UHGV virus genome: UHGV-0241990
Length of the DNA stretch: 13,531 bases
Source: a virus
Reading direction: 5' to 3' (one strand)
The translations under genes were made by a program, and so were the position numbers. Every line of letters starts with the position of its first letter. The stretch's first letter is position 1. Under the pieces are notes generated by a model, which was given only the letters and a program-made list of their open reading frames with translations, was not told the DNA's origin and did not search any database. Shown here piece after piece: positions 2,492 through 12,948 of this stretch.

Positions 2492-3202
2492 ATGTTTAAG
2501 GGAATTATTGTTACACTATTAGCTTGCATTGTATTTGGTCCATGGGTGTTAGTAATTGCTTTGCCTCTATTACTAGTGATGAGTGTAGGGAAAGATATTA
2601 AAAAGCTGCATGCACAATATAAAGAGCACCCTGGAGCAGTCATAACAAGTCTGGTTATAGTCGCGGGGCTTATTGGCTGGGCCTACTTCTCTCTTCCCAC
2701 AGGAAATACAGCTGCAAATGTGGAAGAGGTGAACTCACAGCATGAAGAAGTGGTTAACGTCTCCGATCTTACATGGGAGGACAGGGTAAAAGCATATAAA
2801 TATATTTATGGTGTGCTAGATTGCGATCTCTCTAAAGATATAGGATGCACAGATAAATACCAGATTCACGCCTGGCTGTGGAATCATGCAGAAAAAGGTG
2901 CTTGCAACCAGATTAAAGTGGCGGTTAACAGTGGGGCACCTACTGGGAAAAATAAAGATGTTCTGACGGTATGGTGCAAGGATGTAAAAGGCAATGATCG
3001 TTGGCTACAGATGCGCCACATGGACGGTGTAAGCATAGAAACTACACGAACGGCTCGATGGTATAACGGTGAACTCGTTCACGAAGCATGGCAGAATAAC
3101 GCCTGGATCACTGAGGGAACACTCCTGAATGTTGATATGGAAGCATTGAAGATGCTTAATGAGATGTACGGTGAAGCCGTAGAAACCTCTCCTATGAAAT
3201 AA
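2492..3202 (+). CDS. membrane-anchored protein, 236 aa (two N-terminal TM helices plus soluble Cys-containing domain)
   Basis: ORF from track. Hydrophobic stretches IIVTLLACIVFGPWVLVIALPLLLV and ITSLVIVAGLIGWAYF, then a ~170-aa hydrophilic domain with several Cys. Followed immediately by a strong terminator. Confidence 0.85.
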   Translation: MFKGIIVTLLACIVFGPWVLVIALPLLLVMSVGKDIKKLHAQYKEHPGAVITSLVIVAGLIGWAYFSLPTGNTAANVEEVNSQHEEVVNVSDLTWEDRVKAYKYIYGVLDCDLSKDIGCTDKYQIHAWLWNHAEKGACNQIKVAVNSGAPTGKNKDVLTVWCKDVKGNDRWLQMRHMDGVSIETTRTARWYNGELVHEAWQNNAWITEGTLLNVDMEALKMLNEMYGEAVETSPMK

Positions 3203-3303: not shown

Positions 3304-3783
3304 TTTTGGGCATTGTTGACAGTGTAAGAGAGAGGATGTAACCCTTTTTTGCAATACTAATAAAATCAATAGCTTAGCTCAATTGGCCTTTTCTCTATTT
3401 TTGTCAAATTTAACATACCCTCAAAAACTGCAAAATCTGGCTGCAAGATTATCTGCAGCTGGATTTCTTACACCTCAATTTGTAGTATCACCCTGACTAG
3501 TTTGTGCATAAAATGAACAGTTTTTAACATTTCCTATTCACCTGGTAACCACACAAAAAGCTAAAAACGAGGCACAGATAATCTTAGAGGCCTGTTTTCT
3601 TGTTATCACTCTGGGAACGTCGTAGAAGTGATTTTGATGAAAGATGACCTACCCTATTACACCCCCATTTTTTGTTATCACAATTGCATCCTGTGCGGTG
3701 TATGGCTGTGTGCTGAAAGCGGTCTTGGGTGTGGGTGTCAGAAATATCCATTAGCGGTATTAATACCCGTCAGATGTTCGTCT

Positions 3784-3820
3784 GAGGTGCCAGGCAGGCG
3801 CTCCCCCACCTCCCTTTTTT
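3784..3820 (+). terminator. orphan terminator-like hairpin plus T-run in non-coding DNA
   Basis: GAGGTG (3784-3789) pairs CACCTC (3807-3812) with GC-rich inner pairing, followed by CC TTTTTT (3815-3820). No annotated gene upstream on this strand. Confidence 0.4.
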
Positions 3821-4368
3821 CTTCTAACAATTCTCAAATATCACACCACTGCCGACCACGTTGCTATTATGTTAATTCTTAAGCTTTGCTGTATGTTGTG
3901 CACATTATTTATTCAGGTGGCTGTACGTAAATTCTGTGCCCACTGATCATGATTTTTAAATCAGATTTTGTAGTGCGCTTTATTAGTGTAGATAAGATCT
4001 ATTATGTTAAATGCAATTTTCCCAACCCTTCAAATCAATGACTTACATGTAAGCATGCACTAACACCCCACACAGCACATTAGACGTATAGATGGCTATA
4101 TCCCACATTTTTGATTGTTTTGTAGTCATTCCCCTGATCATTTAACCAGTATAGTTTGTTCTCTGTAGACCACAAAACCGGAATTTACATCTGATTAACA
4201 TAATCTGTTAGCATGATCACCATTACCCACACAACAATAACCCCATGCAAGCCTCTTCAGGCAATTTATCGGCGTGTTGGTGTGAACAGTCTTTCATGTT
4301 CTTTATGTATTCATTGTCCTGTGTGAGGGAAGGATGGACTGCCCCAGGGGCCATAGTTATGACACCCG

Positions 4369-4404: not shown

Positions 4405-4525
4405 TCTGCATATTTCCCACACATGAGAGAAAATCAAAGCAAAGAGAGAGGAGAGAGGTTTGCTAGTCAAAATAGGTCAATTGACGGCTAATACAGAGTA
4501 AAAAATCAGATGCAATCACTCCCCC

Positions 4526-4795
4526 ACCTGTTGGGATTTCCTACAACCCCTTTCAGTCATACTCAGGCACCACACCCCGGTAAATATTACCGCACTAACC
4601 TGTAAAGAATTTTCACACCTGTGTGTTTATACAGTCATACTCTCCTGTTTTGCAGTCATTGCACCCATGATACACAGCCCCTAACCTGTCAAAATATTTT
4701 ACTACCCCACCAATAATACGGCCCATACCTGTAAAATATTTTTACTACTACCTGTCAAAATCTTTTACTACTACCTGTAAAAATATTTGACACTA
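4526..4795. repeat. iteron array: ACCTGT-containing ~23-bp repeats with near-palindromic core GT(C)AAAATATTTTAC
   Basis: Well-conserved copies starting near 4598, 4684, 4727, 4750, 4773 (spacings 86, 43, 23, 23 bp). Degenerate ACCTGT/CCTGT copies at 4526, 4617, 4644. Inverted repeat CGGTAAATATTACCG at 4578-4592. Confidence 0.65.
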
Positions 4796-4825
4796 ATAGA
4801 TAAAGTAATAGACCACACAATAGAT

Positions 4826-4859
4826 CCCCCCCTAACCCCCCAGGGGGGAATGGGGAGGG
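4826..4859. repeat. homopolymer C/G tract palindrome (C7-TAA-C6-A-G6-AAT-G4-A-G3)
   Basis: Read directly: ccccccctaaccccccaggggggaatggggaggg. CCCCCC A GGGGGG centred at 4842. Shorter CCCCAGGGG relative at 4341-4349. Confidence 0.5.
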
Positions 4860-5377
4860 ATCAGAGAGTGGGGAAGGTTTTCTAAGGGAAAAGCTTAACC
4901 CACAAATGAAAGCCTAAAGAGCATTAGCGACTCTTTAGGCAATATGTGTGTGGGGGTGACAATGTATTCCATACATGACACGTCACCCAATTGTGTGTGG
5001 GAGTGCCTACGGCACCTTAGCCCATGGCTAAGCCCTTCGGGTCTGTGTGTGGTCCGGCGAATGCGTCAGCATGAGGCCCACATGTGGACCGCTGCCGAAA
5101 GCTTGCCAGCGCCGGAAGGAGGCAGCAAAGAGTCTCCCGCGCGGGTGCACGCACACATATATAAAGGATACACTCATAAATCGAAAATAAGCCCCCTAAA
5201 TGGCCTTCTGGCTGCATTAACTAGTGTGAGTAGTGCAATTGCATTACCTGACCTCTAAATCGCGTTAGAATCGATTTTAGAGCGCTTAAGGCAAAAAGTG
5301 CCCTCCCTTGTGGGCTTGCTTGTGTCTGCTGTGCAGGCTATGGCACCTATAGCACACCTAAATGATAATAATTCTCA

Positions 5378-5406
5378 TTGACAATTGGTTGACAATATGA
5401 TAAGAT
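5378..5406 (+). promoter_or_regulatory. sigma70-like promoter candidate P1 with duplicated TTGACAAT
   Basis: TTGACA 5378-5383, 17-bp spacer, TAAGAT 5401-5406 (4/6). A second TTGACAAT at 5389-5396, 11 bp downstream of the first. Confidence 0.4.
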
Positions 5407-5441
5407 TATAAATAGGGGGAGAAACAGATCCGGAGGTCAAT

Positions 5442-5591
5442 GTGGAAATTACTGATGCAATAGCGATCATCAACCTGGCTGTACTGTGGTGCGGTGTTGC
5501 CTACATAGCCGGAGTAACTGCAATCGACAATCTTGAAGAAAAAATGATAGATAAATACAAAAAGATTGTTGACAATTTGACGAATGTCTGA
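5442..5591 (+). CDS. small GTG-initiated ORF, 49 aa, predicted TM helix (VEITDAIAIINLAVLWCGVAYIAGVTAIDNLEEKMIDKYKKIVDNLTNV)
   Basis: GGAGG at 5432-5436, 5 nt before GTG 5442; stop TGA 5589-5591. Not in track (short, non-ATG start). Protein-like composition, unlike the antisense track ORF 5406..5606. Confidence 0.3.
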   Translation: MEITDAIAIINLAVLWCGVAYIAGVTAIDNLEEKMIDKYKKIVDNLTNV

Positions 5592-5597
5592 TAAAAT
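5569..5597 (+). promoter_or_regulatory. near-consensus sigma70 promoter P2 for the plus-strand operon
   Basis: TTGACA 5569-5574, exactly 17-bp spacer, TAAAAT 5592-5597; predicted start ~5604, giving a ~120-nt leader before ATG 5725. Confidence 0.6.
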
Positions 5598-5724
5598 ATA
5601 AAGCATAGGGTAATTCTCATCATAGTGAATTTCCTTTAGTAGACTGGCGGGGGCTTGTCTTAAGTTCCCGTTTCTTTTTAATCATATATCGCACAGGTTA
5701 GTGAGCTAACAGGAGGCTTATACT

Positions 5725-5940
5725 ATGGCTAAAACCGGACCGATCAGCCAGCTGGTAAACTGGACTACTGACGAAATCGTCGAGAACGTACTTAAGGGGA
5801 ACTTCCGCAAAACTTCCGTTTATGCATTCATTCGTAAACATAAAGGAGAATATCCACACATTGAAGAAGCAATTTTAAAACTAAATTGCATTCGCCTTGA
5901 GCGGGAACTGGCTAAATACACCAATAACATTAATAAATAA
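5725..5940 (+). CDS. hypothetical small protein, 71 aa
   Basis: ORF from track; AGGAGG SD 5711-5716, 8 nt before ATG 5725; first gene downstream of P2. Confidence 0.7.
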   Translation: MAKTGPISQLVNWTTDEIVENVLKGNFRKTSVYAFIRKHKGEYPHIEEAILKLNCIRLERELAKYTNNINK

Positions 5941-5953
5941 TTATGGGGGAATT

Positions 5954-6820
5954 ATGGCAAGTAATTACGGGGAAAATTTTACTCCCCTTTTTAAACGTTT
6001 CATCAAATACATTTTTAAAAATCCGATTGCAAAAACTACAACCAATAAAGAAAGATTTCACTTAAACTTGTTGGAAATGACAATTTACGGTGAGATGGCA
6101 AGTTTTAATGCTGCAGGTTGTGAAATATTTATCTCTGAACAGAGATTAGCAGACGATTATGATGTTTCAAGACCGACAGTTATTAACTCGATTAAATCTC
6201 TAGAAAATGCCGGGCTTATTTCAATAGTTAAAAGTAAAGGCAAATCTAATCATTACAAACTGCTAATTACCCCTGATCAGCTTGGCAAGATGTGTGATGA
6301 GCAGGGTATTAAAACCTCCGACAGTGTGGGATCTAGTAAAGAGGCCCCCGATAATCAACAGGAAGCCCCAAAACAACCCACACAGCAAGCTAAAAAGGCC
6401 GAGGTGGTGCAATTGCCTACCCAACCTAAGAACGAGCGCAGAGAGCGCTTTAGAGACGCTGGCAAACGTGAGAAAGATGAGCACGGTTATCCGATTCTGA
6501 CAAGTGATGAGATGAACGCCAAATACAAAGGGATTCAGGCAACATTTAAGGATCGGAAGAGCATTAAACTCTCTGAATTGCGAGATGCATTTTACGGGCC
6601 GGAGGTGATGGATAAAATTAAAGGCACCGTTGAGGGTAGAATCTGGAAAGAAGATGATTATTGGCATTTAACAGAACAGGCCCTTAAGGTGGCTCAACAT
6701 GTAGCTAAAAGAGGTAAAACAATTATCATCGATTATATTAGTCATGGCTATGATGCCCCGAAAGAAAGATTGTGGAACAACTGCAAGCTTGTAAAAGGCG
6801 AATTAACCATTACAAAATAA
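5954..6820 (+). CDS. winged-HTH DNA-binding protein, candidate replication initiator or iteron-binding regulator, 288 aa
   Basis: Track ORF 5897..6820; start moved to in-frame ATG 5954 (GGGGGA upstream, avoids 44-nt overlap with previous gene). HTH segment ISEQRLADDYDVSRPTVINSIKSLENAGLISIVK, a Q/P/K/E-rich linker, then a distinct C-terminal domain. Lies ~1.2 kb downstream of the iteron array. Confidence 0.8.
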   Translation: MASNYGENFTPLFKRFIKYIFKNPIAKTTTNKERFHLNLLEMTIYGEMASFNAAGCEIFISEQRLADDYDVSRPTVINSIKSLENAGLISIVKSKGKSNHYKLLITPDQLGKMCDEQGIKTSDSVGSSKEAPDNQQEAPKQPTQQAKKAEVVQLPTQPKNERRERFRDAGKREKDEHGYPILTSDEMNAKYKGIQATFKDRKSIKLSELRDAFYGPEVMDKIKGTVEGRIWKEDDYWHLTEQALKVAQHVAKRGKTIIIDYISHGYDAPKERLWNNCKLVKGELTITK

Positions 6821-6859: not shown

Positions 6860-7006
6860 ATGTATGGCGATCTTGATTATTACCTGGAAAAGGAAAAATA
6901 TTTTGAAGATGAACTATCACAACATTTTTCATATTGGGAAGAATATTGTGGTTGGTTAGCTGAAGATCCAGCAGATGAAGAAAATGATTCTGACATCCCT
7001 TATTAA
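6860..7006 (+). CDS. tiny acidic protein, 48 aa (MYGDLDYYLEKEKYFEDELSQHFSYWEEYCGWLAEDPADEENDSDIPY)
   Basis: Not in track (short). AAGGA SD 8 nt before ATG 6860; stop TAA 7004-7006. Fills the otherwise empty gap between flanking genes. Strongly acidic with aromatic residues. Confidence 0.45.
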   Translation: MYGDLDYYLEKEKYFEDELSQHFSYWEEYCGWLAEDPADEENDSDIPY

Positions 7007-11612: not shown

Positions 11613-11639
11613 AGGGGCTATCAGGCCCCTTTCTTGTCT
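11613..11639 (+). terminator. rho-independent terminator
   Basis: AGGGGC (11613-11618) / GCCCCT (11625-11630) stem, 6-nt loop, then TTCTTGTCT. Overlaps the stop codon of the convergent minus-strand gene. Confidence 0.6.
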
Positions 11640-12079
11640 ATGTCTACCCAGTATTTGATTGCACCGATCAAATCATCATAGTGGCGCATTGCATCATTGA
11701 AGCCTTTATAGCTTGCCCATTGTGGGGAAACCTTGTTATTGCTGAATTGCCCACTAATCAGGATAGTCTCCAAAATGTCGGCGTATCGCTTGCCAATTCG
11801 CTTTCTGACGGCCTCAGAGCTCCCACCCTTTACGATTGCATTAATCAGGGCTTTTGTGTGTCTCAGGCTCTCATAGAGCATTGCAGCGTGGGCAGACTCC
11901 ATAAATGAGCGCTTAGGCAAATCACCCCACCCCTCAGAGTGGATAGCCGCCAGTGTGGCGTAATTCAGGCCGCTATAGTGTTTCCCGTCATCCCAGCCAA
12001 CCGCTACACCTTCCATCTGTGAGAGCTCTTTATGCAGCTTATCCATCATGCGCTTGTCTATGGTGCACCGGACTTTCAT
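11621..12079 (-). CDS. putative virion morphogenesis protein, 152 aa
   Basis: ORF from track; start ATG overlaps the stop of the upstream gene (ATGA at 12076-12079). Segment VGWDDGKHYSGLNYATLAAIHSEGWGDLPKRSF is reminiscent of small head-tail or tail-completion proteins (weak, recalled). Confidence 0.75.
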   Translation of the reverse strand: MKVRCTIDKRMMDKLHKELSQMEGVAVGWDDGKHYSGLNYATLAAIHSEGWGDLPKRSFMESAHAAMLYESLRHTKALINAIVKGGSSEAVRKRIGKRYADILETILISGQFSNNKVSPQWASYKGFNDAMRHYDDLIGAIKYWVDIDKKGA

Positions 12080-12843
12080 TTTGTAGCATCCTTGGCAAAT
12101 TTGGCTTGCCTTTGCTGATCATAAATGTCTTTTGTGCTCATAGCCCCATCATTTTCATCGAGCAAAGTTTGTAAATTTTTAGGCTTAGCCGATGGGGTGT
12201 TGGTTGAGTTCCCGACGTTGCTATTCTTCTCAGCACTGTTAACAGCACCCTTTTGCTGTGTTTTATTCACCTTCTTACTGTTAGTGAAAACTCCGGCATT
12301 TTCGACCATCTTCACCTTGAAGGTGCGGAATTCTTCAAAAGTGCAATCAATAGTGATGCAGTCGCCAGAGGAAGAGCTACGCTTAACTTCACATTTCGTC
12401 ATGATGAAGTTCTCAAGAAGTCCGGCATCTTCACTAACCAGGCTAACCAGCTGGCGCTTGTCTCTCATTTCCATAAGTGCCTGAACAGCGGCAGCAGGGC
12501 GCATAGATTCACGGGGATTATCTGGATCAGTGTTCCGGTCGATGTAGTTCTCTTTCCGGATGATATGAGGGGAAGAGGTAACAATACCCGTAAAGCTGAC
12601 AGATTTATCTTTAATGACGGCATGGTCTGACATGGTGGTGCCATCCTCGACCGCATAGCTCGATTTCTCAACAGGGAACGAATAGCTGACATCAGAGATA
12701 GAGTCAAAGAAGATAGCCACATTATCGGTATAGTTGAAGCCATCCATTATATTTTTGTTTTGTGAATATCCCCCACACATAACAGTGAATGCAGGAGATC
12801 TCGACTCAGCTTGTTTTGCAGCTGTTAGAGCATCATTAGCCAT
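12076..12843 (-). CDS. hypothetical protein, likely structural, 255 aa (258 aa if started at 12852)
   Basis: Track ORF 12076..12852. GAGG SD is 1 nt from ATG 12852 but 10 nt from ATG 12843, so 12843 preferred. Beta-rich N-terminal part, low-complexity polar C-terminus. Confidence 0.75.
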   Translation of the reverse strand: MANDALTAAKQAESRSPAFTVMCGGYSQNKNIMDGFNYTDNVAIFFDSISDVSYSFPVEKSSYAVEDGTTMSDHAVIKDKSVSFTGIVTSSPHIIRKENYIDRNTDPDNPRESMRPAAAVQALMEMRDKRQLVSLVSEDAGLLENFIMTKCEVKRSSSSGDCITIDCTFEEFRTFKVKMVENAGVFTNSKKVNKTQQKGAVNSAEKNSNVGNSTNTPSAKPKNLQTLLDENDGAMSTKDIYDQQRQAKFAKDATK

Positions 12844-12948
12844 ATTGAACATGCCTCAAAAATGAATCTTTTCGTTGCCCTGCTTAAAATCTGCAGAAAA
12901 TACAGGGCAGTTATTCGTTAGAATCGCTTATAGCTCTTCCCGAGAGCG

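Follow-up and report, generated by a model that had tools for sequence, protein, structure and literature searches.

In the Rep_3 iteron plasmids (pSC101 RepA, R6K pi, RK2 TrfA), the plasmid-encoded initiator binds phased direct iterons beside an AT-rich region and recruits the host helicase. In iteron plasmids, the specificity between Rep and iteron sets incompatibility. In the origin of phage lambda, ori-lambda, an O dimer binds each of four iterons, which span 18-19 bp and have hyphenated inverted symmetry; a 39-bp region of high AT content lies beside them (PMC6022878, PMC7466680). Lambda O joins its N-terminal DNA-binding domain through a flexible linker to a C-terminal domain that binds P (PMC6022878, PMC7466680). 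In PLE, a Vibrio cholerae satellite of the virulent phage ICP1, the DNA-binding domain of RepA and the iterons of the origin covary as a swappable module and the C-terminal domain does not; the RepA-origin pairing was confirmed by origin-swap experiments (PMC8263062). Here, we analysed UHGV virus genome UHGV-0241990, a DNA of 13,531 nucleotides whose whole length is called the window below. It carries a gene, rep, for a 288-aa protein (Rep) and, upstream of the gene, four 19-bp repeats at 4684-4791. Judged by sequence comparison, the protein and the repeats are probably the initiator-iteron pair of a 13.5-kb circular plasmid. For covariation, the window and 19 further complete elements were oriented on a conserved flank beside the repeats, which gave a set of 20 elements.

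The open reading frame (ORF) that contains rep extends from 5897 to 6820 on the plus strand in the six-frame ORF list, and from the ATG at 5954 it encodes 288 aa. GGGGGA is found 6 nt upstream of this ATG, and the start agrees with the N-termini (MA[SN]N...) of all homologues. The parts of the gene are as follows.

5954..6820 (stop codon included), plus strand: rep, candidate replication initiator, 288 aa, from ORF, start codon, homologues and PHROG matches
5984..6301, plus strand: N-terminal winged helix-turn-helix (wHTH) domain, residues 11-116
6167..6208, plus strand: recognition helix S72-RPTVINSIKSLEN85, with the SRPT start as specificity-class marker; the motif follows the iteron class in 19 of 20 elements
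6311..6466, plus strand: disordered linker rich in Q, P, K and E, residues 120-171, with a predicted local distance difference test score (pLDDT) <50
6467..6817, plus strand: C-terminal domain (CTD), an orphan fold, residues 172-288

An AlphaFold2 model of Rep was built on a 43-sequence alignment. The winged helix-turn-helix contains helices at 39-53, 62-68 and 73-85, the last being the recognition helix, and wing strands at 89-92 and 100-103. The linker stayed below a pLDDT of 50, and residues 172-288 fold separately; the model of the CTD alone reached a pLDDT of 82.9 and a predicted template modelling score (pTM) of 0.76. The original prediction, which had quoted the peptide ISEQRLADDYDVSRPTVINSIKSLENAGLISIVK (Rep residues 60-93), described an N-terminal winged HTH, a low-complexity Q/P/K/E linker and a separate C-terminal domain. 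This three-part layout is real, since the model gives a winged HTH at residues ~11-116, a segment of low pLDDT and a second folded domain.

To which family Rep belongs was examined with profile searches. In PHROGs, replication proteins were the best 9 matches of Rep and 12 of the first 13. The window Rep matched phrog_270 "replication initiation protein" with E=4e-12, and further top matches were phrog_186 "DnaD-like helicase loader" and phrog_678, 391 and 345 "replication initiation O-like". Both phrog_270 and phrog_678 matched 43 of 43 family members (best E 2e-12 and 2e-10), and phrog_186 matched 41. All of these matches are confined to the N-domain and the start of the linker. With Pfam, HTH_11 and HTH_36 barely exceeded their gathering cut-offs on the window Rep. 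HTH_36 (PF13730) scored 26.2 bits against a cut-off of 25 and matched 43 of 43 family members at E<=0.01 (best 1e-7); by these scores Rep is a member of the generic HTH_36 domain family. GntR, Crp, TrmB and DnaD_N scored below the Pfam cut-offs for the window Rep, and NCBIfam gave only HTH matches, far below cut-offs. Thus the comparison of hidden Markov models with initiator, DnaD-like and regulator families, which had been proposed as a check, came out for the initiators: the initiator PHROGs matched 43 of 43 and the regulators fell below cut-offs. It is phage replication initiators and not regulators to which Rep shows the best and most consistent homology; this agrees with the earlier statement that many phage and plasmid initiators and replisome organisers have this layout.

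The named initiator families were less close. Phage_rep_O (PF04492) matched a single one of the 43 members (E=0.008), which was not the window Rep. Because the O-like PHROGs match and Phage_rep_O does not, the kinship of Rep with lambda O is remote wHTH homology only. DnaD_N matched 18 of 43 family members, below its gathering cut-off for the window Rep, and no DnaB_2 or DnaD C-terminal domain was found in Rep. No match to Rep_3 or RepA_N was found in Rep, which has one winged helix, not two. By the tests run, Rep scores outside Phage_rep_O, DnaD, Rep_3 and RepA_N.

When 5.8 billion proteins were searched, 103 homologues of Rep came back, with identities as low as 42%. They come solely from E. 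coli, Shigella or E. albertii and, save short fragments and one 40-kb contig, they lie on contigs of 13.3-15.7 kb. Among 1.84 billion cluster representatives, an exhaustive HMMER scan gave just 21 proteins with E<=0.001. With so few relatives in such large searches, the family is essentially private to these ~13.5-kb plasmids. Rep had no tblastn match in phages and no relatives in IMG/VR or GTDB species-representative scans. For the CTD, neither sequence families nor folds gave a match, and no relative was detected among phage proteins; its profile search returned only unnamed stand-alone CTD proteins of ~135-150 aa. The CTD "types" of the relatives were also considered as unrelated domains, which was rejected because they align at 27-44% identity and are diverged versions of one domain.

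The four repeats follow the consensus ACCTGTMAAAATATTTKAC and start at 4684, 4727, 4750 and 4773, with a spacing of 43, 23 and 23 bp. They and the DNA beside them are listed here.

4684..4702, plus strand: iteron 1, ACCTGTCAAAATATTTTAC, at position -107 from the conserved flank in all elements
4727..4745, plus strand: iteron 2, ACCTGTAAAATATTTTTAC, at position -64 from the flank
4750..4768, plus strand: iteron 3, ACCTGTCAAAATCTTTTAC, at position -41 from the flank
4773..4791, plus strand: iteron 4, ACCTGTAAAAATATTTGAC, at position -18 from the flank
4792..4826, no strand assigned: AT-rich flank CTAATAGATAAAGTAATAGACCACACAATAGAT, conserved and at the right edge of the array in 20 of 20 elements; a candidate for the region where DNA unwinds
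4824..4851, no strand assigned: G/C-rich inverted repeat with a 12-bp stem, just past the AT-rich flank

When searched at <=3 mismatches, ACCTGTMAAAATATTTTAC was found only at these four positions, apart from the echo that one palindromic site gives on the reverse strand. By chance 0.01 would be expected, and 0 of 200 shuffles gave this repeat count. Each 19-bp repeat is an imperfect, hyphenated palindrome (GTMAAAAT/ATTTTKAC), so the repeats are probably bound by dimers. An iteron array had been reported at 4500-4800. The repeats are real, but the true array is the set of four at 4684-4791, and 4500-4680 contains single sites of other classes.

The first 13 bases of the AT-rich flank anchor the array in every relative. 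The GC content of 4760-4819 is 27%. Between 4793 and 4945, identity to the aligned relatives is 66-100%, with most bins at ~100%; plasmid NZ_CP020521.1 (L015) is the exception, with only ~5-12% identity over 4880-4945. Fold z-scores are strong over 4700-5000, and the cumulative GC skew has a local minimum at 4790-4850, which is suggestive at most. By analogy with ori-lambda, the flank at 4792-4826 may be the region that unwinds (PMC6022878).

In all 20 elements, repeats are located at -107, -64, -41 and -18 from the flank CTAATAGATAAAG. The repeats fall into five classes, which have the AT-rich centre in common and differ in the outer half-site bases. Each class is listed with the start of the recognition helix that goes with it.

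Class A: GTAAAATATTTTAC, helix start SRPT (S72-T75 in the window)
Class B: TGGAATTTCCCA, within ACCTGT...ACAGGT, helix start DRGK
Class C: CCGGAGAATTTCTCCGG, helix start SDRKIRD
Class D: CTGAGAATTTCTCA, helix start SDRKIIE
Class E: CGGTAAAWATTACCG, helix start T[EP]KT

In 19 of the 20 elements, the iterons are of the class that goes with the helix start. For 16 non-redundant elements, none of 200,000 label permutations gave a helix-iteron mutual information as high as that observed. The same permutation test of CTD class against iteron class gave p about 1. Rep proteins are mosaics, in which N-domain and CTD classes combine freely. When the same N-domain is joined to another CTD, the iterons stay the same (L003 vs L006 and L013; L004 vs L019; L005 vs L020; L007 vs L008 and L021). 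The Rep proteins of the window and L007 are 80% identical overall; 14 of 35 wHTH positions differ, and the iterons differ as well. The segments 4793-4945 (except in L015) and 5331-5620, which lie between array and helix, are ~90-100% identical across most classes. Since recombination has uncoupled the CTD, which is nearer to the helix, from the array, the helix-iteron association is not simple linkage.

Six predictions on iteron classes were registered ahead of the test, and five of them held. P0057 was predicted and found to have class C, P0053 class D and P0100 class E. P0074 is a chimeric Rep with an IRD helix and the wing of another class, and its iterons were of class C, as predicted. Because P0074 carries the iterons of its helix class, it is the helix and not the wing that tracks the outer bases. 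The SRPTIIKAIK class, a large one (P0026, P0042), has one array common within the class, also as predicted. We consider the covariation good computational evidence that Rep binds the repeats; for an iteron-type theta replicon it is indirect evidence. Together with initiator homology and array anatomy, it supports in silico the candidate ori-rep module of the original prediction.

Compared with the described systems, PLE RepA and its origin are the closest evolutionary parallel. In both, the DNA-binding domain covaries with semi-palindromic non-coding iterons, the C-terminal domain varies independently and the module has been swapped repeatedly. However, the RepA domain is of the RepA_N family, whereas that of Rep is HTH_36, O-like or DnaD-like. 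PLE is integrated into the chromosome and does not replicate until infection, whereas the present element is found as a free plasmid. Two specificity classes are known for PLE, compared with at least five here. Lambda O and ori-lambda also resemble Rep and its array: a wHTH, a linker and a C-terminal domain in the protein, and four ~19-bp iterons followed by an AT-rich region in the DNA. The O-like PHROG families match the Rep N-domain, and N-domain specificity classes pair with iterons. In contrast to lambda, whose iterons are inside the initiator gene, the plasmid iterons are 1.16 kb upstream in non-coding DNA. No gene for a P-type helicase loader follows rep, and the CTD is without a phage relative. 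The DnaD-like replisome organisers have a DnaD_N wHTH and DnaB_2, whereas Rep is without a DnaB_2 or DnaD C-terminal domain. The Rep_3 plasmids are alike in logic, if Rep is a plasmid initiator with phased iterons beside an AT-rich region as proposed. Unlike the Rep_3 initiators, Rep has one winged helix and no Rep_3 match, its iterons are palindromic and no DnaA box is adjacent.

We suggest the following order of events at the origin. The N-terminal winged HTH would bind as a dimer to each of the imperfectly palindromic iterons. The recognition helix would read the outer half-site bases with its start (SRPT...); the AT-rich centre is common to all classes. On the four phased sites (43, 23 and 23 bp), a nucleoprotein complex would be built that strains the adjoining AT-rich flank at 4792-4826 and opens it. 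The flexible linker would then present the CTD, possibly with a downstream acidic-tail peptide. The CTD in turn could recruit a helicase or primosome that is not encoded by the plasmid, namely that of the host during maintenance and perhaps that of a helper phage after infection. We infer this recruitment step because the CTD has no family or fold match and no helicase loader is encoded; scans of the plasmid proteins against protein families gave no helicase, helicase loader or primase homologue.

Two promoters and a short gene were found between the array and rep.

5378..5406, plus strand: sigma-70-like promoter TTGACA-17-TAAGAT, in a region 77-99% identical across elements
5569..5597, plus strand: sigma-70-like promoter TTGACA-17-TAAAAT with upstream TG, 11 of 12 consensus matches
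5725..5940, plus strand: 71-aa ORF directly upstream of rep, conserved in relatives and probably co-transcribed, no family match

Both strong sigma-70-like promoters point towards a 49-aa ORF, the 71-aa ORF and rep. A promoter named P2 had been placed between array and gene, and the one at 5569-5597 is probably this promoter.

The palindromic sites raise the question of whether Rep is a transcriptional regulator. In that case Rep would be a master repressor or immunity protein, the repeats would be its operators and the CTD would sense a helper or host signal, in the manner of satellite Stl or phage CI. RefSeq labels one Rep homologue "MarR family" and another "GntR family", in line with this possibility. 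However, all regulator matches are below the curated cut-offs and cover the HTH only; the window Rep scored 22.8 bits against 27 for GntR and 12.4 against 24.6 for MarR. Rep contains no FCD, UTRA or MarR dimerisation region and so does not qualify as a GntR or MarR protein, and no other effector or oligomerisation domain of such families is present. In lambdoid phages, immunity repressors likewise show high allelic diversity, matched by the diversity of their operators. The class A sites, though palindromic as operators would be, occur nowhere else in the plasmid, including the two strong promoters and the capsid and tail operons. The four phased direct copies and the conserved AT-rich block look like an origin and not like operators, and the strongest and most consistent matches of Rep are to initiator families. 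If Rep were a regulator, the plasmid would be left without a replication function. A regulator is thus an unlikely explanation in our judgement, and we continue to treat Rep as a probable initiator.

Several observations weigh against an initiator-iteron pair. The array is 1.16 kb away from rep with promoters in between, and repressor operators, too, are typically palindromic. Neither a DnaA box nor an IHF consensus site adjoins the array; DnaA boxes in the plasmid are found only at 1507 and 3503, which is chance level. The GC skew of the whole plasmid is uninformative, as it follows gene orientation. There is no helicase-loader gene on the plasmid. The PHROG names are annotations of untested function, the Pfam HTH matches are marginal, and GntR, MarR and CodY-type matches also turn up. 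The covariation sample is not phylogenetically independent. One registered prediction failed: a new iteron class was expected for SRPTIIKAIK, and its array was the class A of the window. This result is compatible with a weaker form of the rule, in which a similar helix start goes with the same sites. Finally, 1 of the 20 elements, L015, has class E iterons yet a very divergent wHTH with the helix LQPNIARAIKKLEAEG.

In L015, the wHTH of the protein at the rep position is 26% identical to that of the window. The protein is without the CTD and has an acidic tail, ...NDSAIPY; the CTD can therefore be replaced. The linker core QEAPKQ..QQ is kept even in this divergent protein, which still matches the initiator PHROGs. 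It may be that its wHTH reads class E sites as well; otherwise the simple code of the helix is incomplete.

A second acidic sequence is encoded directly after rep.

6860..7006, plus strand: very acidic ORF of 48 aa with the end ...DEENDSDIPY

Eighteen of the 20 elements have an acidic mini-ORF after rep that ends in acidic residues and Tyr, in three non-homologous versions. In L015 the acidic tail is fused to the wHTH protein, and in L021 the acidic ORF was not detected. The version of the mini-ORF tracks the CTD class of Rep. We take the end ...DEENDSDIPY to resemble the C-terminal tip of E. coli SSB, DDDIPF. It is possible that the 48-aa product is a partner of Rep or an acidic-tail adaptor.

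Many relatives have a second wHTH paralogue, consisting of the N-domain only, between the 71-aa ORF and rep; the window is without this gene. Examples are listed below.

L003, 8692-9057: N-domain-only wHTH paralogue
L004, 6546-6932: N-domain-only wHTH paralogue
L005, 2858-3358: N-domain-only wHTH paralogue
L006, 5383-5901: N-domain-only wHTH paralogue

The helix class of these paralogues mismatches the local iterons. The short paralogues were considered as the true iteron binders and rejected, because none exists in the window and those of the relatives have helix classes that mismatch the local array. The window does contain single sites that are not of its own class.

4525..4545, plus strand: single foreign-class site, B-type, CACCTGTTGGGATTTCCTACA, same type as the iterons of DRGK-helix elements
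4574..4595, plus strand: single foreign-class site, E-type, ACCCCGGTAAATATTACCGCAC, same type as the iterons of T[EP]KT-helix elements
4598..4616, plus strand: related upstream site ACCTGTAAAGAATTTTCAC, class "F", in several elements whatever the Rep class

The single foreign-class sites could be remnants of module swaps or tools of competition between elements.

The window is a complete circular plasmid of 13,531 bp, because the ORF of the major capsid protein (829 down to 13314, minus strand, 348 aa) spans the junction of its ends without any terminal overlap. At 91-94% identity, it corresponds to complete circular E. coli plasmids of 13.2-13.7 kb. In 5426 complete E. coli genomes there were 10 matching places, all plasmid and 0 chromosomal. 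PLSDB gives no replicon type for the single record checked for typing, and no description of this plasmid family was found in the literature searched. Family scans of the plasmid proteins gave no replication-related match in any other gene. Rfam at E<=1 and a tRNA scan of the window returned nothing, so there is no ColE1-type RNA replicon and no known non-coding RNA. The plasmid needs a replication function and no other candidate gene was found, which argues for Rep as the initiator. The family is otherwise mostly 93-100% conserved, and Rep is among the most variable genes, as expected for an incompatibility or specificity determinant; so are the tape measure gene, the 71-aa ORF and a slot at 2492-3202.

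We also considered partition. Here Rep would be a centromere-binding adaptor of the ParR or TubR type, with the repeats as its centromere. Plasmid centromeres consist of arrays of short repeats, and Rep has a weak sequence match to TubR of pBtoxis (4aso, E=0.08). This match is not significant, the homology to initiators is far stronger, and no ParA, ParM or TubZ NTPase was found across the 13.5 kb. We find this explanation scarcely credible and return to replication.

The following phage-related genes were found on the plasmid.

829 down to 13314, across the junction, minus strand: major capsid protein (phrog_29), 348 aa
8794-10935: tape measure protein
11621-12079, minus strand: tail-completion or Neck1 protein (phrog_222)
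12076-12852, minus strand: Dit-like "tail tube initiator"

Between the Dit-like protein and its counterpart in rV5-like Vequintavirinae, identity is 45-46% (E about 1e-58); for the tape measure protein, the best matches over the full length are Vequintavirinae tape measures. Among phages, the capsid protein matches only myophages of 133-150 kb. Genes for a portal, terminase, sheath or tube were not found on the plasmid, and megablast of the window against INPHARED phages gave no match. A GC-rich non-coding stretch at 5082-5149 (extended ~5045-5205) is 83-87% identical over ~65-130 bp to a region in ~120 rV5-like genomes. The counterpart in rV5 is in the small ORF 78, beside the GntR-like ORF 79, and in the phages the region is mostly unannotated. 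A structured RNA in this 65-bp stretch was rejected (z = 0.24); the stretch may be a regulatory or packaging signal that the plasmid has in common with a helper phage. Since capsid and tail genes and a non-coding stretch are related to rV5-like phages, and portal, terminase, sheath and tube are absent, these comparisons make a plasmid-borne satellite of virulent rV5-like phages a serious possibility.

An element that has capsid and tail genes and no terminase needs a packaging signal, and Rep could in principle serve this need. As a packaging-specificity factor, similar to a small terminase or lambda Nu1, it would direct the helper terminase to the plasmid through the repeats, which would be pac or cosB. 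Lambda Nu1 is a wHTH protein that binds repeated R sites. A trimeric record of ~40 kb also exists: plasmid NZ_CP043822.1 (L002, 39,610 bp) is a head-to-tail trimer of a 13.2-kb unit with one copy rearranged, which is an artefact of assembly or else a genuine multimer, its size being roughly that of a phage capsid. On the other hand, Rep has no terminase small-subunit match in Pfam, PHROGs or NCBIfam, and the homology of its N-domain is to initiators. A packaging signal should match the conserved terminase of the helper, yet the array diversifies into five classes in an otherwise conserved family. The ultra-conserved region 3400-4270 is a better candidate for pac or cos. A packaging role for Rep is hence very improbable in our view, and the initiator remains our preferred explanation.

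The region 3400-4270 is non-coding over ~850 bp and mostly 94-100% (87-100% per 100-bp bin) identical to 10 of 12 aligned relatives; L008 and L011 diverge over part of it. No gene is conserved to this degree. For this region, both a hidden gene and a structured RNA were rejected: its substitutions have no 3-periodicity (39/38/32), and it gave no fold z-score signal and no Rfam match. IHF-consensus sites at 3364 and 4033 and the DnaA box at 3503 are at or near it. The region may be pac, cos or another cis-acting site.

If confirmed, the Rep-iteron pair would be a new, untyped E. coli replicon and the maintenance module of an apparent plasmid-form satellite of virulent rV5-like phages. Five helix-iteron classes on a near-isogenic backbone make a convenient natural series for studies of the winged-HTH recognition code and of incompatibility. 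To know the replicon is the first step to tractable derivatives and to testing the satellite idea. A wider proposal, which we put forward only tentatively, is that the pair is both replicon and incompatibility determinant of an undescribed family of plasmid-borne rV5-like (Vequintavirinae) satellites. The CTD and the SSB-tip-like ...DSDIPY peptide would recruit the replisome, that of the host before infection and possibly that of the helper after it. The N-domain-only paralogues and the single foreign-class sites, which many family members have, would act as trans-dominant origin blockers or decoys between co-resident elements.

Some further regions vary between the elements. The tape measure protein is 64-91% identical between elements and thus much more variable than the neighbouring structural genes, which are mostly 90-100% identical if the divergent L021 is set aside. 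The slot at 2492-3202 (plus strand) encodes a predicted membrane protein of 236 aa in the window, and relatives carry unrelated or diverged ORFs of 173-239 aa in its place. The product at 2492-3202 gave no family or defence match, and the slot may be a cargo or exclusion hotspot. PADLOC returned only sub-threshold HTH matches on the plasmid, so no defence system is indicated. The non-coding block at 4945-5330 is mosaic between elements and contains three TGTGTGTGG repeats.

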